Positions 19,227-53,805 of a DNA stretch of 64,000 nucleotides are shown here, in pieces. This DNA is from Patescibacteria group bacterium. GTDB taxonomy: Bacteria > Patescibacteriota > Minisyncoccia > Phycocordibacterales > JAKFXT01. The stretch's first letter is position 1. The number at the start of each line of letters is the position of its first letter. Where the stretch lies: contig JAKFXT010000015.1 in assembly GCA_021731245.1 (NCBI GenBank), positions 14,889-78,888 on the forward strand. The letters are read 5' to 3'. The translations under genes were made by a program, and so were the position numbers. Below the pieces are notes generated by a model. That model was not told the DNA's origin and searched no databases. It saw only the letters and a program-made list of their open reading frames with translations.

Positions 19227-19440
19227 GTAAGTGAGTGCTAACACAATCTTGTTGGTTCTAACGAATGTCTGCGAAAGAGCCCCTAAGGGAAACCTTGTGG
19301 GGCCTTTTCGTGCCCGCACATAGGCTTTTTGTTATACTTCGACTGAAGTCCTGATTATTCTTATGTATGGCTCCCGGCCTGCGCTCACTTAAGACATTAG
19401 TTTTGGAGCTAGCACCCGGGGGCCATATATCGGTGTAATT
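19227..19440 (+). ncRNA. candidate structured RNA: murB leader/riboswitch-like element, or an independent sRNA (for example 6S-like)
   Basis: Starts about 6 nt after the -10. The 5' segment GUAAGUGAGUGC (19227-38) pairs with GCGCUCACUUAA (19381-92) to close a roughly 165-nt domain. Inside is a hairpin GCCCCUAAGG-GAAA-CCUUGUGGGGC. It is followed by a short hairpin plus UAAUUUUUAUUU (terminator/attenuator-like) before murB. Confidence 0.3.
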
Positions 19441-19447
19441 TTTATTT

Positions 19448-19512
19448 ATCCCGTTAGAGAAAAATTAAATTTAATACAATAACTCATGCTCACAGACCTC
19501 TCTAATGGGATG
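19448..19512 (+). promoter_or_regulatory. bipartite inverted-repeat leader motif (copy B) at the murB start: ATCCCGTTAGAGA ... TCTCTAATGGGAT(G)
   Basis: Forms a 13-bp helix with one G.U and a 39-nt loop. It carries a compensatory change (AGA/TCT here, AAA/TTT in the other copies). Confidence 0.5.
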
Positions 19513-20523
19513 CAAGAAAACGTTTCTCTGAAATCTTTGACTACATTTCGTATTGGTGGGCAGGCCCGCTTTTTTTGTTTGATAAACAATATAGAGGATT
19601 TAAAGAAAGCGACCCTTTTTGCTAAAGATAAAGGACTTAATATTTTTGTGCTCGGGGGCGGTTCAAATATCCTAGTTTCCGACGATGGATTTGATGGGTT
19701 GGTTGTGAAAATTGATATAGAAGGTATTGAAATTAAAGAACAAGGAGAAGATTTTTCAGTTTCGGTTGGAGCTGGAGTTGTCTGGGATAATTTTGTTGAG
19801 GAGATGGTTTCAAAAGAAATATTTGATCTTGAGAATTTATCAGGAATTCCAGGCAGTGTCGGCGCCGCTCCAATTCAAAATATCGGCGCTTATGGAAAAG
19901 AAGTAAAAGAGGCGATTCTTTCGGTTGAGGTTTTTGATTTAGAAAATTTAAAAGAAATTAAACTTAGTAATGAAGAATGCCAGTTTTCTTATAGAGATAG
20001 TATTTTCAAAAAGAAAGAAGGGAAAAAACTTGTTGTAACTAAGGTTAATTTTTTATTAAAAAAAATCTTCAGTCCGGACATAAGTTATAAAGATATAAAA
20101 GAATACTTTTCAGGGCGTGATTTGGAAGTTACCCCACTTAATCTTCGTGAAGCTGTTATTTCTATAAGAAAAAACAAACTACCTGATCTTGAAATGTATG
20201 GGAGTGCGGGGTCTTTTTTTAAAAACCCAATAATAGATGAGACCCTGGCTGTTTCTTTACTAAAAACTTACCCCAATGTGCCTAATTGGAAGGATTATAG
20301 CGGGAAGACGAAGATTTCGGCCGCCTTTCTTATAGATAAGGTGTGCGGATTTGGTCATGAAAGTGTGGGGGATGCTTCTGTTTGGGAAAAACAGAATCTA
20401 GTTCTAATAAATAAAGGAAATGGAACAGCAAAAGATGTTTTAGACCTAGCAGAAAGAATTCAAAATTGTGTAAAAGAAAAAACAGGGCTTAATTTAGAAA
20501 GGGAAGTTCAATTTATTTCTTAA
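19510..20523 (+). CDS. murB: UDP-N-acetylenolpyruvoylglucosamine reductase
   Basis: FAD-binding domain LTTFRIGGQARFF ... VLGGGSNIL, and the MurB C-terminal domain. The start was placed at the ATG of the conserved TAATGGGATG motif; an in-frame ATG at 19486 is the alternative. Confidence 0.85.
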   Translation: MQENVSLKSLTTFRIGGQARFFCLINNIEDLKKATLFAKDKGLNIFVLGGGSNILVSDDGFDGLVVKIDIEGIEIKEQGEDFSVSVGAGVVWDNFVEEMVSKEIFDLENLSGIPGSVGAAPIQNIGAYGKEVKEAILSVEVFDLENLKEIKLSNEECQFSYRDSIFKKKEGKKLVVTKVNFLLKKIFSPDISYKDIKEYFSGRDLEVTPLNLREAVISIRKNKLPDLEMYGSAGSFFKNPIIDETLAVSLLKTYPNVPNWKDYSGKTKISAAFLIDKVCGFGHESVGDASVWEKQNLVLINKGNGTAKDVLDLAERIQNCVKEKTGLNLEREVQFIS

Positions 20524-42471: not shown

Positions 42472-42517
42472 TGAAAAATTATATCACAGCACGTGTTATA
42501 ATTTTTAATAATAAAAT

Positions 42518-45868: not shown

Positions 45869-46843
45869 ATGAGCGAAGAACGCCTAAAAGAATTTAAAGA
45901 AAATTATAAGACCTCCTATTTGGCAGGTCGTTTTGAGCAATTGAAAAAACAAGAAGAAGAATTGTTGGAAATGAATAAGGACGAAAGTCTACAATCAATG
46001 GTGGAAGAAGAATTGAAGACATTGAGAGAAGAAATAAATACAGCTTGGAACCAGATGGAGAATATAGTTAAAGAAGAAGAAACTGAAGATAAGTTTCCTA
46101 ATGAAATAATTTTAGAAGTGCGTGCGGGAACAGGCGGTGAGGAAGCGGCTCTTTTTGCCTGGCAACTTGCAAGAATGTATGAGCGATATGCGCAAAAAGT
46201 TGGTTGGCAATTTAAAAATGTTTACGAATCAAAAAGTCCACTGGACGGATACAAAGAAGCAGCTTTTGAAGTAACAGGACAAGATGTTTATAAAAAACTT
46301 AGATTTGAAACAGGGGTTCATAGAGTTCAGAGAATCCCTGCGACAGAAAAGTCAGGACGCCTCCATACTTCTACGTCTAGTGTTGTTATTTTGCCAATAG
46401 TAAAAAAATCAAAAATAGTAATAAATCCAGTTGATTTGGAAATGGAATTTTCTCGCTCAGGTGGAGCAGGCGGTCAAAATGTTAACAAAGTAGAAACTGC
46501 TGTAAGACTTATTCATAAGCCAACAGGTATTGATGTGCGTTGTACATCTGAAAGAAGCCAGCAGAAAAATAGAGAAAAAGCTTTGGCGATTCTTTCGGCA
46601 AAATTACAAGTTCTTCAAGATGAGGAAGAGGCGAAAAAAGAATCAGGAAATAGAAAGGGTCAAATAGGAACAGGAAACAGAAATGAAAAAATAAGAACCT
46701 ACAATTTCCCGCAAGACAGAGTCACCGATCACAGAATAAAAGAAAGTTGGCACAATTTGCCAGCGATTTTAGAAGGCGGAATTGAAGACATCGTTGATTT
46801 ATTGCAAACCAAAGAGCACGGGGAAGTGGTTGATCAAGATTAA
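45869..46843 (+). CDS. prfA: peptide chain release factor 1
   Basis: GGQ motif ([12 protein letters not shown]) and RF1-type PAT tripeptide. Confidence 0.9.
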
Positions 46844-46852
46844 ATATAAAAT

Positions 46853-46878
46853 AAAAACCCCGCGTGAGCGGGGTTTTG
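46853..46878. terminator. bidirectional rho-independent terminator (serves prfA and the minus-strand GC-rich gene)
   Basis: AAAAA-CCCCGC-gtga-GCGGGG-TTTTG. Confidence 0.8.
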
Positions 46879-46895
46879 AAAACTGGGGCGGAGAG

Positions 46896-47417
46896 TTACT
46901 TCGCCGCCAGAACATCCTTGTCGATCTGCAGTAGCTTGGCGTGCTTTTCGACGCTTGTGTAGTTCATCGCGCCGATTGGCATTTGCCGTATTTGCCGAAG
47001 ATCACTGACCGTCAGCGCCCAGAAGTAGGGATAGAAGAACTGGCGGTTTTGATCTCCCACCTTATCCGCGAACTCCTTGAGCGCGTAGGTCTTGCCGTCG
47101 ATTCGAACACCTGGCCTTTCCTTCGAGATGTCGACCTCGAGGCTGACCAGAACATATGTAGCGAAAACGCTCCGCATGTTTTCTTTTTCTCGGACGAGGA
47201 AGCCTTCGTAGCTCCGGCAGTAGGTGCAGTCCCCACTGCTCAAGTAGATGAACAGCTGCTTTTTTTCTTCTTTCGCCGTCTTGATTGCGGACGTGAGGTC
47301 GAAGACCTTGCGTCCAGATTCAATCGCAGGCACGACCTTGATCGGCTTGAAATCTTCCGGCATACCTGCGAACGCCGGAAAAACAACTGCAACCAGCAGA
47401 AGCAAAAATGCTTTCAT
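46896..47417 (-). CDS. secreted thioredoxin-fold protein with CxxC (CTYC) motif; G+C-rich, foreign-composition gene
   Basis: Signal peptide MKAFLLLLVAVVFPAFAG and redox motif LSSGDCTYCRSYEG. The ORF is GC-rich with G/C-ending codons. It has its own consensus promoter, a 5' hairpin, an AAGGAG RBS 8 nt before the ATG, and a terminator. Confidence 0.6.
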   Translation of the reverse strand: MKAFLLLLVAVVFPAFAGMPEDFKPIKVVPAIESGRKVFDLTSAIKTAKEEKKQLFIYLSSGDCTYCRSYEGFLVREKENMRSVFATYVLVSLEVDISKERPGVRIDGKTYALKEFADKVGDQNRQFFYPYFWALTVSDLRQIRQMPIGAMNYTSVEKHAKLLQIDKDVLAAK

Positions 47418-47467
47418 GGAAAGATCTCCTTATATCGGCGTTGCGAAAGCAACGCTATCTATTGTCT

Positions 47468-47496
47468 ATTATACTCCAATAAAAGCCAAAAGTCAA
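47468..47496 (-). promoter_or_regulatory. consensus promoter on the minus strand: TTGACT - 17 nt - TATAAT
   Basis: Plus-strand agtcaa (47491-96) and attata (47468-73). The 5'-UTR hairpin GCGTTGC-uuuc-GCAACGC is at 47438-55. Confidence 0.6.
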
Positions 47497-47536
47497 TATG
47501 AAATGAGAAGAAGTAAAATAATGGCCTATTTTATAG

Positions 47537-49216
47537 TTATTTCTTCTCTAAGCAATAAATTTCATTAGCAAATGTTGGAACAAAAAATCTTTTTGTTTTT
47601 TCATTGTAAGCAATTTTATTAACAATTCTTTCTACTGATTGGAATATGCCCGTGTTTTTTCCAGTTTGAGTATTAATTTCATACAATCTAGCATCATTTG
47701 ATCCAATATATAATTTGCCTTCTATTACTGTAGGACTAGCAAAAATTCTTCCTTGCGTCTCGAATTTCCATATTAACTTAAAATTATCCAAATCAAGACA
47801 GTAAAGATGTTTGTTAAGAGACGCAAAGAAAATTTTGTTTTCGTAAATAAAAGGAGATGAATATATGACCATTCCTGTATCATAAGTGTGGGCAACATCG
47901 CCTGTTTTTATTTTTAAAATATAAAGTTTCCCATCATGTGAACCGAATGTTACAAGCCCTCTTTTTTCATCAAAGGCAAAGGAAGCTTTTACCTCGCCCC
48001 CTGTTTGGAATTTCCAAACTATTTCGCCTGTTTTTGCTTTAAAACAATAAACTCCACCATCGTTTGAACCGATTACAACTAACTTATCTTTTTTGTAATA
48101 TGCGGGGGAACCGTGTGTTAAACCGTCAAATTTATGTTCCCAGCACTTTTTTCCTGTTTCAGCATTAAGTGCCACAATACCACCTCTTTTTTTCCAAAAT
48201 CCAAATTCAAGTCCAACATAAACAAGTTCCAAATCTTCTGCTATAGCGGGGGAGGAGCCTATCCAATCAGCCTCCATAAATATCCATTTTTTCTTACCGG
48301 TTTCTTTGTCTAATGCATAGAAATTGCCATCATAGGCCCCAAAATAGACTGAACCTTTATACAGAGATGGGGAAGAAAAAATGCTTTTTCCCTGTGCTCC
48401 AAATCCCAGAATTTTAAAACGCCAAACTTCTTTGCCGTCTTCTTGATCAAGCGCCCAGAAAGTTCCATTATCACTACCAAAAAATATTTTATTTTCATCA
48501 ATTGCTGGGGCTGATTTTGGAACAACGTATAAATAAGTTGGATTGGGTATTTTTACTTGCCATTTGATTTCAAATGGGAAGTTTATTTTTTCTTTATCTT
48601 TTTCAATTAGGTTTGAAATATCCAAAGAGTCTTTGAAATCATCAAGTGTAAATAAAGAAAATATTTTTATCCCCTTGTCATTTAAATATTTATAGTAGGA
48701 AATATCACGAAAACGTAAAACGGCGCAAACAGCAACAACTTTTTTTCCAAGAGACTCTAGAATTTCTATTTGCCTTACGAATCCAAGCCCCCTGTTCATC
48801 AAATCGTCTACCAAGACAACGGGGTCGTTTGTTAGGTTTCCCTCAATCATATTTTGGAGATCAGTTTTCTCGCGAGACTTACGAATATAGAAACCAGATA
48901 TATCTTTTTCTTTTGATTTTAAAACTAGGGAAGTAATAATAGGAATTGAGGCTGTTTCTAATCCACCAATTTGAAATTTAGGTAAATCTTTTAGTTTTTC
49001 TAAAAATAAATCAGAAATTTGGTTTAAAATTTCAGCATTAAAGAGAATTTTTCTAAAATCAAACACCCAGTCAACCTTTCTGTTGTTTTCATCGATGATT
49101 TTAGCAACATCTTTACTTATAAAGACTTGATTTTCTATTATTTTCTTTAAGTTTGGTAAAGTTTTATCCACAAAATTGAAAGCGCAATAGGTTCCCCTAG
49201 AGCTATACTTTAACAA
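47537..49216 (-). CDS. fusion protein: type I phosphoribosyltransferase domain + PQQ-like beta-propeller
   Basis: N-terminal PRTase PRPP-binding motif VVLVDDLMNRGLGF. The C-terminus has at least 6 PQQ/BamB-like repeats (G.FYALD..TGK..W.F). Confidence 0.6.
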   Translation of the reverse strand: MLKYSSRGTYCAFNFVDKTLPNLKKIIENQVFISKDVAKIIDENNRKVDWVFDFRKILFNAEILNQISDLFLEKLKDLPKFQIGGLETASIPIITSLVLKSKEKDISGFYIRKSREKTDLQNMIEGNLTNDPVVLVDDLMNRGLGFVRQIEILESLGKKVVAVCAVLRFRDISYYKYLNDKGIKIFSLFTLDDFKDSLDISNLIEKDKEKINFPFEIKWQVKIPNPTYLYVVPKSAPAIDENKIFFGSDNGTFWALDQEDGKEVWRFKILGFGAQGKSIFSSPSLYKGSVYFGAYDGNFYALDKETGKKKWIFMEADWIGSSPAIAEDLELVYVGLEFGFWKKRGGIVALNAETGKKCWEHKFDGLTHGSPAYYKKDKLVVIGSNDGGVYCFKAKTGEIVWKFQTGGEVKASFAFDEKRGLVTFGSHDGKLYILKIKTGDVAHTYDTGMVIYSSPFIYENKIFFASLNKHLYCLDLDNFKLIWKFETQGRIFASPTVIEGKLYIGSNDARLYEINTQTGKNTGIFQSVERIVNKIAYNEKTKRFFVPTFANEIYCLEKK

Positions 49217-49239: not shown

Positions 49240-49662
49240 ATGAATGAGAGAATAAAATACATATTTATAGTATCTGCCACCTTTTTGTTAACGCTCGTTT
49301 TGATTTATGGGACACCCCTTAGATACACAGATTTATTAGAGCCTAAAATTAAAGATGTTGATCCATCTGTTTTTTATCAAAAATATTCTCAAAATCCAGA
49401 TAAATATGTGTTTATAGATGTGAGACCCTTGGAGGCTTATAAAAATATACACGCGAAAGGATCGGTAAGTAAGCCACTCCATACTTTATATGATGAGCGT
49501 CATACATTGCCCAAAGATGATAAAGAAATTATACTAATATGTAGTGGAGGTCGTGCGTCAGGAGTAGGTTTTTTCTATCTTCAGCATTACGGCTTTACTA
49601 ACATAAGTCGTGTAGAAGGAGGAATAGAGAATTGGATAGAGAAAGGATTACCTACTGAATAA
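49240..49662 (+). CDS. rhodanese-domain protein (membrane-anchored)
   Basis: N-terminal TM and the rhodanese active-site loop ILICSGGRAS (Cys-x5-R). Confidence 0.7.
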   Translation: MNERIKYIFIVSATFLLTLVLIYGTPLRYTDLLEPKIKDVDPSVFYQKYSQNPDKYVFIDVRPLEAYKNIHAKGSVSKPLHTLYDERHTLPKDDKEIILICSGGRASGVGFFYLQHYGFTNISRVEGGIENWIEKGLPTE

Positions 49663-49671
49663 TATTTACAT

Positions 49672-49926
49672 ATGAAGAAAATATACAAAATTACGTTTTA
49701 TATTTTAACAACGATTGTGGTATTACCTGTCTTTTCATTATTTATTGATAATCAAAAAGACGATTCTGTTTTTGTAAACACTGTCTCTGCCGATGTCCCG
49801 GCTGTTGTTGTTCCACCTCAACCAGCCCCCTACGATTATTCGGGTGGTGGATCATCAGGTGATGGTTCTTGTGATAGTGGTGGAGCTGATGGTGGTGGTG
49901 GAAGCGGTTGTGATGGTGCTTGGTAA
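49672..49926 (+). CDS. small secreted/anchored Cys- and Gly-rich peptide, paralog 1
   Basis: N-terminal hydrophobic segment, ADVP motif, then the G/S/D-rich tail GGGSSGDGSCDSGGADGGGGSGCDGAW. Confidence 0.5.
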   Translation: MKKIYKITFYILTTIVVLPVFSLFIDNQKDDSVFVNTVSADVPAVVVPPQPAPYDYSGGGSSGDGSCDSGGADGGGGSGCDGAW

Positions 49927-49957: not shown

Positions 49958-51058
49958 ATGGATACTGAAAAACAAGACGATTTAGGAAAGTTGATAAAAA
50001 TTGGACTTCCCATTTTAATTTTAGGAGCTTTAGTTTTTGTTTTTTTTATAAATAGAGATTATTTTTTTAAAAAAGATGGAGTAGTAATGAAAGGTGCATC
50101 AAGTAGACAAGATTTGTCAAAGAAGAATAGTGATTTTGCTAAAGCAGAGTCACTCCTTAGAAATAATCCTAGCGAAGCTTTAATTTCATATAAAGAGGCT
50201 TTAGGTAATGCGTCTTCTCAAGAAGATTCAGATAGTATTTCTTTTAGAATAGCACTCGCAACATATAGAAGTGGTCAATTAAGTGAAGGTATTAATCTGT
50301 TTAAGAAACTTGTTTCTTCAAAGGATGTCTCTAATGTAACAAAAGCATATTCTATACAGTTTTTTGTTCAAGAATATTTTGCTACTAATAGTCAATCTTT
50401 GTTTGATTTAATATTCTCTGATGATCCATACAAGAGTTTTCTAAAAGATAATAATAAAGAAGGTGCAATAAGAGAGTTGGTTGAGTATGGTAAATCACTT
50501 CTTCCATTACCGTTACTAACCCTTAGATCAGCAGATTATAAAGCAAAAGATCTTATTATCTTCAAAAATGAATCAGATATAACCAAAGAAACACTTCTTT
50601 CAGGGATAAGTAATGATTTGAATATGGCGGAGGCGGGTATTGAAGCTCTAAGAGGAACACCAAATATAGATCAGTTGCCTGTTATATACAATAGAAAAAT
50701 GGTCCTTTTTACAAATTTAAAGCGAGCAGGATACATAATGGGGGATCCGGCAGATTCTTATGAAAAAGGAGTTAGTTTCTCTAATCTTTACAATGACAAG
50801 GAAACTTTGATGTTCTTACATTTAAATTACGCTATTTATTTGTTAATAGAAAATTCAGAAGCTAATGAAGAAAAGATACGTTCTATCTTAAAAAATATAG
50901 TTGAAGAAAAAGATAGAGACCTTAATGTTTTTCAATATTTAAAAAATAAAGCAAGTTCTAATAAGAATACAGATGAGTTTGTTAAGTTTATAATGGTTTT
51001 GGTTGACGTAGACGAATCATTCAAAGATTTACTCACGACATTAGGTTGGAAGTTCTAA
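49958..51058 (+). CDS. hypothetical membrane-anchored protein (helical repeat)
   Basis: One N-terminal TM helix, then an alpha-helical TPR-like domain. It is flanked by the two small peptide genes. Confidence 0.45.
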   Translation: MDTEKQDDLGKLIKIGLPILILGALVFVFFINRDYFFKKDGVVMKGASSRQDLSKKNSDFAKAESLLRNNPSEALISYKEALGNASSQEDSDSISFRIALATYRSGQLSEGINLFKKLVSSKDVSNVTKAYSIQFFVQEYFATNSQSLFDLIFSDDPYKSFLKDNNKEGAIRELVEYGKSLLPLPLLTLRSADYKAKDLIIFKNESDITKETLLSGISNDLNMAEAGIEALRGTPNIDQLPVIYNRKMVLFTNLKRAGYIMGDPADSYEKGVSFSNLYNDKETLMFLHLNYAIYLLIENSEANEEKIRSILKNIVEEKDRDLNVFQYLKNKASSNKNTDEFVKFIMVLVDVDESFKDLLTTLGWKF

Positions 51059-51063
51059 TCAAA

Positions 51064-51297
51064 ATGAAGAAAACTATTAAAAAAGCCATTTATATTATTG
51101 GTTTGGTTTTTGTTTTCCCAATGATTTCAATTTTTCTTAACAAAGAAGATAAAGTTGTTGACGTTGTAAAAATTGTCTTAGCGGATGTGCCAGTTAACAA
51201 TAATGTTCAAGATTATTATGGGGATTCCTCTAGTCTAGGGGGTGGTTGCGATGGGGCTGGGAGTGATGGTGGAAGTGGCTGCGACGGTTCTTGGTGA
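51064..51297 (+). CDS. small secreted/anchored Cys- and Gly-rich peptide, paralog 2
   Basis: MKKTIKKAIYIIGLVFVFPMISIF ... ADVP ... GGGCDGAGSDGGSGCDGSW. Same architecture as 49672..49926. The start was taken at the internal ATG, 4-nt coupled to the upstream gene. Confidence 0.5.
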   Translation: MKKTIKKAIYIIGLVFVFPMISIFLNKEDKVVDVVKIVLADVPVNNNVQDYYGDSSSLGGGCDGAGSDGGSGCDGSW

Positions 51298-51370
51298 TTA
51301 TTTTAGAAAAAAGAAAAGGCGCGATGGACTTTTTCAAGTCGTTGCGCCTTTTTGTTTGCCGTCCAAACAC

Positions 51371-52000
51371 TTACTTCATTTCACTTGTTTCACCACAGGC
51401 AATGAGTTGATGTATTTCTTCCGGACCGCCGCTACGATCGACGAATTTCATCATTACGTAACGTTTGATCTTGGAGTCAGTCGGAAACCAAGCGATTTGC
51501 ACCATGCTACTGGAGTAACCACTTGAGAGTCGGTAGGTCGTTACAACCTCGATTTTTATGGTGTCGAAAATACCAGCCGGAACTCTCACACCTTTTTCAA
51601 AGACGGAACTCGCCACGCTACTTTCAGCGTAGACCGTCACTCCCTGTTGCCGCGGATGGGGGTAGCTAAACTTTCCTCCCCCTGTAATTCCAGCCTTTAG
51701 CGGGTAATTCGGCATTACAAAAGCAGGTGAATACTTGATTCCATCACGCTCTAAAAGCTGATGGTCGTTGTTGTATATCCTAGTTGATAATCCTCGCCCA
51801 TCTTTCACTAAGAGCTTAAATCCGCCATCAGGAAAAATTTCGACAAACTCCTGTTGGACGATCCCAGCGACACGAGAATTACTCTCATAGTCGCATCGAT
51901 AACCCTTGTTGTAATCCGGTTTTGGAAATTCTTGCGACAGGGAGTTTCCAACAAGGAATGTAAGGAAAAGGCTCAGAATCAAAGCCACCGGCGTTTTCAT
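51371..52000 (-). CDS. secreted hypothetical protein; G+C-rich, foreign-composition gene
   Basis: Signal peptide MKTPVALILSLFLTFLVGNSLSQE. The start was set at the ATG that has a TAAGGAG RBS 9 nt upstream; the ORF track's longer start lacks an RBS. It has its own promoter, a 5' hairpin and an imperfect terminator at about 51300-51350. Confidence 0.55.
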   Translation of the reverse strand: MKTPVALILSLFLTFLVGNSLSQEFPKPDYNKGYRCDYESNSRVAGIVQQEFVEIFPDGGFKLLVKDGRGLSTRIYNNDHQLLERDGIKYSPAFVMPNYPLKAGITGGGKFSYPHPRQQGVTVYAESSVASSVFEKGVRVPAGIFDTIKIEVVTTYRLSSGYSSSMVQIAWFPTDSKIKRYVMMKFVDRSGGPEEIHQLIACGETSEMK

Positions 52001-52062
52001 CGAAGAGCGCTCCTTAATCTTTGAGTTTGGGGGCAAAATTGCCCATAAATCAATCCAATTCG

Positions 52063-52092
52063 ATTATAATAACAAAAAATCTATTCTGTCAA
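52063..52092 (-). promoter_or_regulatory. consensus promoter on the minus strand: TTGACA - 17/18 nt - (T)TATAAT
   Basis: Plus-strand tgtcaa (52087-92) and attataa (52063-69). The 5'-UTR hairpin GGGCA-aaau-UGCCC is at 52031-44. Confidence 0.6.
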
Positions 52093-52908: not shown

Positions 52909-53805
52909 ATGGAGAAAAATTTAACCTCTTTTGCTAAGAATAATTTATACGCTTTAATATTTTTATTTGTTTTGGGCATATCTCTTTTGATTGGAACTTT
53001 AATTAAAAATGGTGGAGCCCCCATTAAGTCTTCAGAGTTTTCTTTTTATAGCTTATCTCCAAATGGTGAGCTCGGTGGGCGTAGCGTACCAGCTTCATGC
53101 CCATCTGATTTACACGATGACCCTACTTATGGAACAGCGTGCCAGTCGGCCCCGAATTCTTGTGGAGCAAGAGGTAATGGAACTTATCAATGTGGAGGAG
53201 TTTGTAATGCGACAGCTCCTGTTGCGGCAAATAATTATGGACAAGCTTGCTCATCAACAAATGCATGTGGCATAAGTGGGTCAGGAACATACAGCTGTTC
53301 TGGCACTTGCAGTGCCAACCCAGCGTTGCCTGCAGGATACGGACAATATTGCCAATCGCAACCAAATAATTGCGGTGTTTTTGGTCAGGGATACAGAGGA
53401 TGTAATGGAAGTTGTCCCGCCATTAGACCAGCTGATGATACAGATTGTAGTGATGTAGAAATTGAAGTTGGAACGACAACGACTATTACTATCCCACCTA
53501 ATTGTGAAATCGGAGGACCTGATTGTGAGGTTGTGACTACAATAATTCCACGCGACTCAGAGTTTGTTTCCCCTGGATCATCCTGTTCGATTTATTGGGA
53601 TGCAAGTCCTGCAACAAGATGTACTATAGTGGGACCAAGTGTAAATAGGCAAAATGAGCCACCATCAGGGTTGTTTGTAACACCAAGAATAGGAGTAGAT
53701 ACTCCAGGATCAGCCACTTACACCATAACTTGTTATAACGGAAACACTCTTGCTGCAGAGAGAAGATTCTCTTGTCGCTTGAATCCTAATTTCCAAGAAG
53801 TATAA
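52909..53805 (+). CDS. secreted/anchored cysteine-rich repeat protein
   Basis: N-terminal TM, then at least three repeats of C(Q/S)S.PN.CG..G.G(T)Y.C.G.C.A, followed by a C-terminal Cys-containing beta-rich region. Confidence 0.5.
   Translation: MEKNLTSFAKNNLYALIFLFVLGISLLIGTLIKNGGAPIKSSEFSFYSLSPNGELGGRSVPASCPSDLHDDPTYGTACQSAPNSCGARGNGTYQCGGVCNATAPVAANNYGQACSSTNACGISGSGTYSCSGTCSANPALPAGYGQYCQSQPNNCGVFGQGYRGCNGSCPAIRPADDTDCSDVEIEVGTTTTITIPPNCEIGGPDCEVVTTIIPRDSEFVSPGSSCSIYWDASPATRCTIVGPSVNRQNEPPSGLFVTPRIGVDTPGSATYTITCYNGNTLAAERRFSCRLNPNFQEV

Follow-up and report, generated by a model that had tools for sequence, protein, structure and literature searches.

An atypical guanine-plus-cytosine (GC) content commonly serves as a clock by which horizontal transfers are judged recent. 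Among described systems, phage morons are defined as single open reading frames (ORFs) with their own promoter and terminator, placed between backbone genes and deviating in composition (PMC4378225). Single-gene transfers in groundwater Patescibacteria have also been documented, with Pseudomonadota among the donors (PMC12455944). A unit of comparable build, labelled c2, was analysed in a 64,000-nt stretch of a Patescibacteria contig (GenBank JAKFXT010000015.1), the whole of which is called the window. The unit occupies positions 46844-47496 on the minus strand, between prfA and a gene encoding a phosphoribosyltransferase (PRTase) fused to a PQQ-repeat propeller (the PRTase-PQQ gene). It is probably an autonomous, moron-like unit with an exported thioredoxin-fold product, which came from outside before the split from a related groundwater genome and whose composition is apparently maintained.

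A first-pass annotation, made from the sequence alone, had described a promoter, a leader hairpin, AAGGAG 8 nt before an ATG at 47417, a 522-nt ORF and a terminator. All of these were found where they had been placed, and the unit reads as follows.

47468..47496, minus strand: sigma-70-type promoter, TTGACT-17-TATAAT, 11/12 match
47438..47455, minus strand: leader stem-loop GCGUUGC-UUUC-GCAACGC, from the minimum free energy structure of the leader
47426..47431, minus strand: Shine-Dalgarno sequence AAGGAG, 8 nt before the ATG at 47417
46896..47417, minus strand: ORF for a predicted exported thioredoxin-fold pre-protein, 522 nt, 173 aa
47364..47417, minus strand: signal-peptide coding region (MKAFLLLLVAVVFPAFAG), predicted cleavage after AFA
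47217..47231, minus strand: active-site motif D63-C64-T-Y-C67, cysteines at least 90% conserved
47028..47030, minus strand: codon of Pro130, the putative cis-proline, invariant in 28 sequences
46844..46877, minus strand: intrinsic terminator with a 10-bp stem, UCAC loop and U-run

The -35 element TTGACT (47496-47491) and the -10 element TATAAT (47473-47468) are separated by a 17-nt spacer, and this promoter was the sole 11/12 match within a 6-kb neighbourhood. Five promoters matching at least 11/12 positions were observed in the window versus 3.0±1.5 in simulations, that is, there was no overall enrichment. Three of the five are correctly oriented and precede, by 49-63 nt, the only three ORFs in the window that are outliers in GC content at third codon positions (GC3), and this placement is not given by chance. 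The promoter type is native to the host because consensus sigma-70 promoters precede native genes in many Paceibacteria relatives. The leader of about 44 nt folded at -12.6 kcal/mol (z -2.8); its hairpin begins about 5-6 nt from the predicted transcript start and may act in mRNA stabilisation.

The terminator, AAAACCCCGC-UCAC-GCGGGGUUUU followed by a U-run, forms a 24-nt hairpin beginning 18 nt past the stop codon. Its stem of 10 bp includes six GC pairs and is followed by UUUUUAUUUUAU. The folding energy was -16.5 kcal/mol (z -4.6), and none of 200 shuffles equalled it. A GC-rich hairpin followed by a U-run is the pattern of an intrinsic (Rho-independent) terminator. The presence of the terminator in the first-pass annotation is thus upheld, whereas its loop, given there as gtga, was the plus-strand reading of what is UCAC on the minus strand. 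The terminator lies between the convergent prfA and c2 ORFs and could possibly be shared by them; the U-run is on the c2 strand, clearly so in the related genome described below. Taken together, the predicted signals support c2 as an autonomous monocistronic unit. Rfam returned no known RNA family in the leader or the unit at gathering thresholds, and RsmY and similar candidates were rejected as sub-threshold, terminator-driven matches (RsmY, 28.8 bits versus 57). A 13-nt AT-rich inverted repeat (46841-46853 and 47527-47539, 12/13 complementary) brackets c2 exactly, from the prfA stop to the PQQ stop. As a mobility signature (terminal inverted repeats) it was set aside as probably a chance pair in AT-rich spacers, and no counterpart was seen by eye in the related genome.

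The 173-aa protein was compared with sequence and structure collections. A word-indexed homolog search returned the self-match only, and an HMMER scan of 1.84 billion representatives gave 61 proteins at E<=1e-3, of which the best was 39% identical. The PDB sequence search gave weak matches only (E>=0.016 for the thioredoxin part), so the fold assignment was taken from a structure model. In an alignment of 28 family sequences, the signal peptide was followed by I/M-P-x-x-F/Y-x-P at the mature N-terminus and by D-C-x-x-C, while Pro130 was invariant and Trp133 near-invariant. The dipeptide between the cysteines was TY in the window, SW in the ortholog of the related genome and PP (CPPC) in most family members. 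The AlphaFold2 model built on this alignment had a pLDDT of 90.9 and a pTM of 0.84. It shows a beta-alpha-beta-alpha-beta-beta-alpha core similar to solved thioredoxin folds, with the CxxC at the N-terminus of helix 65-76 and Pro130 directly before strand 131-135. The structural neighbours were all thioredoxin folds, including human AGR3, which is resident in the endoplasmic reticulum, and bacterial disulfide isomerases from Xylella and Bacteroides. According to the model, the core fold, the CxxC at the first long helix and the conserved proline loop of the thioredoxin-fold superfamily are all present. Because C64-T-Y-C67 stands at the start of helix 1 and the putative cis-proline is invariant, the protein is most likely an extracytoplasmic thiol:disulfide oxidoreductase.

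The n-, h- and c-regions of the signal peptide were recognised by inspection as MK / AFLLLLVAVVFP / AFA-G without a lipobox cysteine. An equivalent region occurs in all family members, and the model had low pLDDT at residues 1-20. Sec-type export is the probable route. The description of c2 as encoding a secreted CxxC thioredoxin-fold protein is therefore borne out by the alignment, the Thioredoxin_7 matches and the model, with export judged by inspection. The suggested assignment to Thioredoxin_7 (Pfam PF13899) held for the family, 25 of 28 members matching at E<0.01 (best 7.5e-8), but not for the window protein itself, which scored 23.7 bits (E 5e-5), below the gathering threshold of 27. The protein belongs to a related subfamily rather than to the curated members of Thioredoxin_7. 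It adds a new and rapidly evolving member to an uncharacterised family of presumably exported thioredoxin-like proteins. In two family members, P0008 and P0013, the same thioredoxin domain is fused to rhodanese domains that match TIGR03865 (196 bits versus a cutoff of 128), which suggests, by association only, a thioredoxin-rhodanese or disulfide-handling role outside the cytoplasm.

The age of the unit was evaluated with a 60-kb contig (L084) of a Hainich groundwater metagenome-assembled genome (MAG; H41), which was reached via the protein homolog of a further unit, cassette 3. The contig is collinear with the window from 42.5 to 61.6 kb, with flanking proteins 61-88% identical (mostly 73-88%), and carries an orthologous unit in the same slot between prfA and the PRTase-PQQ gene. 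Its promoter, TTGACT-17-TTCAAT, is at the same position with a largely conserved spacer. The leader hairpin has the same stem, with one one-sided A-to-G change that gives a U.G pair, and a different loop. The Shine-Dalgarno sequence AAGAGGA lies at the same distance from the start as in the window, the ORF encodes 174 aa with a GC3 of 0.66, and the homologous terminator shows one compensatory A-U to G-C change. Independent Logan assemblies reproduced the L084 locus at 99.96-100%. The c2 proteins are 53% identical, as against 83% for both neighbours; the nonsynonymous divergence (dN) is 0.40 for c2 and 0.08-0.30 for the flanks, with a ratio to synonymous divergence (dN/dS) of about 0.17 for c2. 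The flank dS is 1.0-3.5. Because the orthologous unit stands in the same slot at this divergence, c2 would predate the split of the two lineages and would not be a recent strain-specific insertion.

The segment from the promoter to codon 26 is about 88% identical at the DNA level between the window and L084. Among amino-acid-conserved codons, 83% are identical in codons 1-26 versus 41% in the rest of the ORF (p=6e-4), an indication of RNA-level constraint. The 20 compensatory pairs reported by RNAalifold on the two sequences were discarded, the structure having been fitted to those two sequences.

The first-pass annotation had called the composition of c2 foreign to the host, and it does lie far outside the host range. 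The ORF has 52% GC (0.55, 0.34 and 0.67 at the three codon positions), and its GC3 lies at z = 11.4 relative to the 64 host genes of the window (mean 0.272, sd 0.035, maximum 0.34). In a cumulative GC walk, the GC-rich block spanned 46857-47378, running from the terminator up to around codon 13, with host-like composition in the promoter, the leader and the first codons. Codon adaptation of highly expressed genes was rejected as the cause of the high GC3, since the ribosomal-protein and EF-Ts genes of the window have GC3 values of 0.26-0.33. Long antisense ORFs overlie the GC-rich units at 46941-47501 on the plus strand (186 aa) and at 12562-13071 on the minus strand (169 aa), and a 180-aa antisense ORF over the c2 ortholog persists in L084. 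Such open frames on the antisense strand are to be expected of GC-rich DNA, with its scarcity of stop codons, and they could mislead gene callers.

Two further units of the window bear on the persistence of this composition.

12487..13063, plus strand: cassette 1, with a 12/12 promoter at 12487-12515, leader hairpin, 146-aa ORF at 12565-13005 and terminator
51305..52092, minus strand: cassette 3, with a 12/12 promoter TTGACA-18-TATAAT (52092-52063), AAGGAG, 209-aa ORF at 51371-52000 and terminator

Cassette 1 had been described as sharing the build plan of c2, and its consensus promoter, leader hairpin, GC3 of 0.65 (z 10.6) and terminator agree with this. Its protein is without a Pfam match and belongs to a Patescibacteria family; no database record has the identical sense-protein sequence. 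Homologs were found at L092:4533-5009, L093:8001-8378, L174:6001-6426 and L175:5827-6261; in L092, L093 and L175 they lie directly upstream of the same gene of about 590 aa in a polysaccharide cluster, and in L174 elsewhere in a cluster of the same kind. Cassette 3, likewise built on this plan though absent from the first-pass description of c2, encodes a signal-peptide ORF with no Pfam match (GC3 0.47, z 5.5). In L084, the ortholog in the same slot is broken into 144 aa plus 69 aa read in a different frame, and 13 contigs have the 144-aa product on record. The junctions of cassette 3 in the window were reproduced at 100% identity in two independent assemblies. The leader hairpin was dropped as a feature common to all units, because that of cassette 3 is destroyed in the ortholog and is not significant.

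The decay expected for a donor signature was then compared with the observed composition. At fourfold-degenerate sites of conserved codons, the flanks of the window and L084 are 41.2% identical versus 29.2% at saturation (n=1204), and the fraction of ancestral states kept per lineage is about 0.41 (confidence interval 0.36-0.46). Neutral decay toward the host equilibrium (fourfold-site GC, GC4, of 0.27-0.33) from an ancestor of 100% GC has a ceiling at a GC4 of 0.57-0.61. The observed GC4 of the c2 orthologs, 0.65 in the window and 0.62 in L084 (n=78 each), is at or above this ceiling. The richest homolog observed has a value of 0.81 and as an ancestor would predict about 0.5. Fourfold-site identity of c2 is 0.47 versus 0.41 in the flanks, and this resemblance indicates vertical descent rather than recent replacement. 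The GC-richness has been kept through near-saturating synonymous turnover and is therefore not simply a fresh donor signature. For cassette 1, GC3 was 0.65, 0.68, 0.87, 0.73 and 0.72 in five lineages with host GC3 of 0.27-0.62. The composition of cassette 1 is maintained, since its GC3 stays high while the flanks are saturated at fourfold sites among the window, L092 and L093. The case for maintenance is strong for cassette 1 and modest for c2 alone.

Folding of the transcripts was also evaluated. The whole c2 transcript folded better than dinucleotide shuffles, with z values of -5.1 in the window and -3.8 in L084. Against permutations of the coding sequence in which protein and codon counts were held constant, the mean z of eight cassette genes was -2.3, with seven of the eight at -1.7 or below. 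Twelve host genes averaged -0.23, and 15 GC-rich controls, including c2-family homologs from other organisms, averaged -0.52; the cassette genes differed from each group (Mann-Whitney p=0.002 each). The GC-rich, strongly folding composition of the cassettes appears to be actively maintained, over few genes and lineages. Selection for structured, stable mRNA is regarded as the leading candidate explanation, and GC-biased conversion and recurrent allele replacement are the alternatives to it.

Ordinary horizontal transfer with neutral amelioration still under way is the rival that survives best, and it is considered unlikely. It supposes a donor GC3 of about 0.9-1.0 and an arrival just before the window/L084 split. 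The atypical composition and the lineage-restricted distribution agree with it, as do family members on contigs of 62-63% GC with a GC3 of 0.81, and the observed GC4 of c2 tops the ceiling by only about 1.5 standard errors (SE). However, it needs essentially 100% GC at fourfold sites at the time of the split, whereas the richest homolog has 0.81. The persistence of a GC3 of 0.65-0.87 in cassette 1 across five lineages, with saturated flanks in the three compared, also speaks against it, and it does not predict an excess of mRNA folding over synonymous permutations.

Maintenance without adaptation was given a lower probability still. The composition would then be kept by GC-biased gene conversion or by repeated allele replacement from GC-richer Paceibacteria through conserved flanks and ends. 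Paceibacteria genomes span 31-62% GC, and most individual transfers into Patescibacteria are reported to come from other Patescibacteria (PMC12455944). Moreover, the ends of c2 (promoter to codon 26, and the C-terminus) are far more conserved than its middle, and units can be present in one genome and absent from another, as for the DUF5680 unit described below. Against this, no closer c2 allele occurs among the 1.84 billion representatives, the fourfold-site identities of c2 and its flanks are as in vertical descent, and the cassettes show no polymorphism among near-identical assemblies. The excess folding relative to synonymous permutations is also left unexplained by such processes.

The distribution of the gene bears on a third rival, by which c2 is a native Paceibacteria gene that was never transferred and whose GC-richness is purely selected. 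The native promoter type, the orthologous and syntenic copy in L084 and the persistent composition fit this view. The neighbouring prfA matched only Patescibacteria of Paceibacteria/Parcubacteria type, the best species representative being 71% identical, and the window is ordinary chromosome with rplY, rpmE, prfA, rpsB, tsf and sugar-nucleotide genes. The c2 gene was absent from 80 GTDB prfA loci of other, more distant Patescibacteria (<=71% identity), in which the PQQ gene was also not downstream, and neither c2 nor prfA was near the PQQ gene in about 45 metagenome loci. The first-pass annotation had proposed looking in related genomes for an empty site where c2 stands, between prfA and PRTase-PQQ; no empty junction occurred among these approximately 125 loci, and the adjacency of the two genes was found only in the window and L084 genomes, both of which carry c2. 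A metagenome scan with the two-ortholog alignment returned nothing. No tblastn match occurred in 50,697 phage records, 72,556 plasmids or IMG/VR, and a phage or plasmid origin was ruled out by this absence of homologs. The only named family member found is from Limnohabitans, a betaproteobacterium, and other members lie on contigs of 52-63% GC, one of them near a BamE gene. A native gene is quite improbable in view of its absence from the other Patescibacteria loci and from all closer database entries, and of nearest relatives that are at most 39% identical, the placeable ones being in Limnohabitans, on GC-rich contigs and beside the BamE gene.

Foreign origin is the best reading of this phyletic pattern. 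The simplest history has the gene acquired once from another lineage, before the window and L084 diverged, and then inherited vertically at one position while its protein evolved fast. The idea of a foreign insertion in the first-pass annotation therefore stands with respect to origin and falls with respect to recency, the ortholog being at the same slot in L084. It had been stated there that conservation of the gene at this position in related genomes would count against the insertion, and such conservation was found in one related genome, L084. An artefact, whether an assembly chimera, contamination, or a mistaken non-coding RNA or antisense ORF at 46941-47501 on the plus strand, is hardly credible: the sharp GC jump, the antisense ORF (186 aa, and 180 aa in L084) and the unusually good transcript folding could suggest it, but the boundaries coincide with functional signals, the same unit recurs in an independent MAG and in Logan assemblies, whose copies of the L084 locus and of the cassette-3 junctions rule out a chimera, it is the sense frame that agrees with the protein family, the signal peptide, the CxxC, the confident fold and the dN/dS of 0.17, and the Rfam matches are sub-threshold and terminator-driven.

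Several points weigh against an outside origin with maintained composition and an exported redox product. With n=78 sites, c2 exceeds the ceiling set by neutral decay by only about 1.5 SE in each lineage. The cassette-1 homolog in L174 has no excess folding (z +0.8), and an uneven composition along a gene can inflate its folding z-score. There is one orthologous genome, so that the timing and the conservation of the hairpin rest on two sequences, and the donor taxonomy comes from one named member and contig GC. The promoter, the function of the hairpin and the cleavage of the signal peptide are all sequence-based predictions. In addition, the Thioredoxin_7 score of the window protein is below threshold, the link to rhodanese is guilt by association, and the neighbouring PQQ protein is without a signal peptide.

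Under the preferred reading of c2 as an acquired, self-contained unit, a host-type sigma-70 promoter would drive a transcript of about 610 nt, which the 5'-proximal stem-loop probably protects. The strong Shine-Dalgarno sequence would direct translation, and the intrinsic terminator would end the transcript. The 173-aa pre-protein would be exported by its Sec-type signal peptide, and the mature domain of about 155 aa would adopt a thioredoxin fold in the DsbD-gamma/Thioredoxin_7 structural neighbourhood. Its substrates or partners are likely exported cysteine proteins, and the membrane-anchored rhodanese encoded 1.8 kb away is a candidate partner by association, given the thioredoxin-rhodanese fusions elsewhere. 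The gene would have been acquired from outside before this lineage and that of the Hainich H41 MAG separated and would have been kept between prfA and PRTase-PQQ, its protein evolving about four times faster than the neighbours. The GC-rich, strongly folding composition of its mRNA would be under active maintenance and not the fading trace of a donor.

Several exported cysteine-containing proteins are encoded near c2, as is the candidate partner.

49240..49662, plus strand: native membrane-anchored rhodanese, Pfam Rhodanese E 2e-12

This rhodanese has an N-terminal hydrophobic anchor and the loop CSGGRAS and looks catalytically competent. It is a plain single-domain PspE/GlpE-like protein and not a TIGR03865 member. 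The PRTase-PQQ gene (47537-49216, minus strand) encodes an orotate-PRTase-like domain fused to a PQQ-repeat/BamB-like beta-propeller, and the product is cytoplasmic. Orthologs of the fusion with 40-61% identity occur at about 45 Patescibacteria metagenome loci (L095-L139), and several of these loci also have a membrane-anchored rhodanese within a few kb. Two paralogous small exported proteins without a Pfam match are encoded at 49672-49926 and 51046-51297 on the plus strand (84 and 83 aa). Their glycine-rich C-termini end in C-D-(S/G)-G...G-C-D-G-(A/S)-W, and they are possible disulfide-containing substrates of the c2 protein. A further protein without a Pfam match, of 298 aa and membrane-anchored (52909-53805, plus strand), contains some two dozen cysteines arranged in repeated C-x-n-C patterns and shares 78% identity with its L084 counterpart. 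At 19194-19485 on the plus strand, an 11/12 promoter (TTGACT-16-TATAAT) stands before some 260 nt of GC-richer intergenic sequence with a terminator-like hairpin, ahead of an ORF at 19486-20523. No Rfam match was obtained for this stretch even at E<=1, and it could be a small RNA or a leader not yet described.

Units of the same plan were also found outside the window. L084 carries an extra GC-rich single-gene unit, DUF5680 (19581-20090, plus strand; GC3 0.58), with its own terminator between fba and pfkB. The corresponding site in the window (42472-42517) has 47 bp only, in other words, a filled-versus-empty pattern. A perfect palindrome with arms of about 20 bp follows this unit near L084:20206-20250. 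A crude scan of 878 kb of AT-rich Patescibacteria loci gave a few further units of the same plan. Additional GC3-outlier genes lie at L129:9560-10390 (plus), L129:3335-3757 (plus), L011:865-1563 (plus) and L174:7410-8405 (minus). A lipoprotein gene of L129 has a 12/12 promoter 61 nt upstream and a terminator, and a 2-hydroxyacid dehydrogenase paralog among the outliers has a GC3 of 0.74 versus 0.45 in its host, with a folding z of -2.5.

A wider proposal is possible but doubtful at present: AT-rich Patescibacteria would carry a class of self-contained units whose GC-rich, well-folding mRNA is kept by selection independently of host GC. Each unit would combine a consensus promoter with some 50-60 nt of leader, a strong Shine-Dalgarno sequence, one ORF (often exported or orphan) and a terminator, and the class would include c2, the units at 12.5 and 52 kb, DUF5680 in L084 and the units in L129 and L011. 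If this were true, an atypical composition would mark functional mRNA design and not recency of transfer, and selection could, for example, favour long-lived transcripts in very slow-growing cells.

Taken alone, the c2 gene is a modest discovery: it encodes a thioredoxin-like protein, lineage-specific and presumably exported, that possibly works with an exported rhodanese. The unusual part is the long-term maintenance of a GC-rich, strongly folding composition across unrelated units, as seen in few genes and lineages. Several unrelated single-gene units hold a GC3 of 0.6-0.9 in hosts at 0.27-0.45 (one richer host, 0.6). If this is general, compositional detectors of horizontal gene transfer would misdate such genes, and Patescibacteria would offer a natural setting in which to test for selection acting on the composition or stability of mRNA, or for GC-biased conversion. 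No paper on persistent GC-rich autonomous units in this phylum was found in a limited literature search, which is not proof of novelty.

The unit was finally compared with known systems. Integron gene cassettes are, like c2, single-ORF accessory units between other genes. However, c2 has no attC site, its only such stem being the terminator, and has its own 11/12 promoter with no integrase or cassette array; on the missing attC and the own promoter, it was rejected as an integron cassette. The transfers documented in groundwater Patescibacteria are likewise single-gene acquisitions in streamlined genomes (PMC12455944), but that work describes neither self-contained promoter/terminator units nor persistent atypical composition and assumes that old transfers lose their GC signature. 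The extracytoplasmic oxidoreductases of the DsbD-gamma/Thioredoxin_7 neighbourhood (Escherichia coli cDsbD, 1vrs; Helicobacter pylori HP0377, 4fyb; Bacteroides fragilis, 3f9u; Xylella, 3fk8) are 13-16% identical to c2. Compared with them, c2 encodes a free-standing domain that has additional N-terminal strands and a helical extension at the C-terminus, and its dipeptide TY is unusual where the family consensus is PP; no DsbD-like membrane partner was seen in the window. In the thioredoxin-rhodanese fusions, which fall under the TIGR03865 title 'PQQ-dependent catabolism-associated CXXCW motif protein', the N-terminal module is of the same thioredoxin family (33-38% identity over residues 1-164). 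The window likewise encodes an exported rhodanese and a PQQ-repeat propeller protein beside c2, but here the thioredoxin is a separate protein, the rhodanese is not TIGR03865 and the PQQ neighbour is cytoplasmic, so that the association of the three may be coincidental.

The phage morons of Hendrix and Juhala offer the fullest comparison. Like c2, they are single ORFs with their own sigma-70 promoter and factor-independent terminator between backbone genes, and their composition deviates from that of their neighbours, as the GC3 of c2 does. The DUF5680 unit even shows the classic filled-versus-empty pattern between L084 and the window. By contrast, c2 is in a cellular chromosome, between prfA and a metabolic gene, with no phage or IMG/VR homolog. 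Moreover, the composition of morons is usually read as recent acquisition, whereas c2 is old (flank dS >1) and its composition persistent. In short, c2 resembles a moron in the way it works but falls outside the strict definition.

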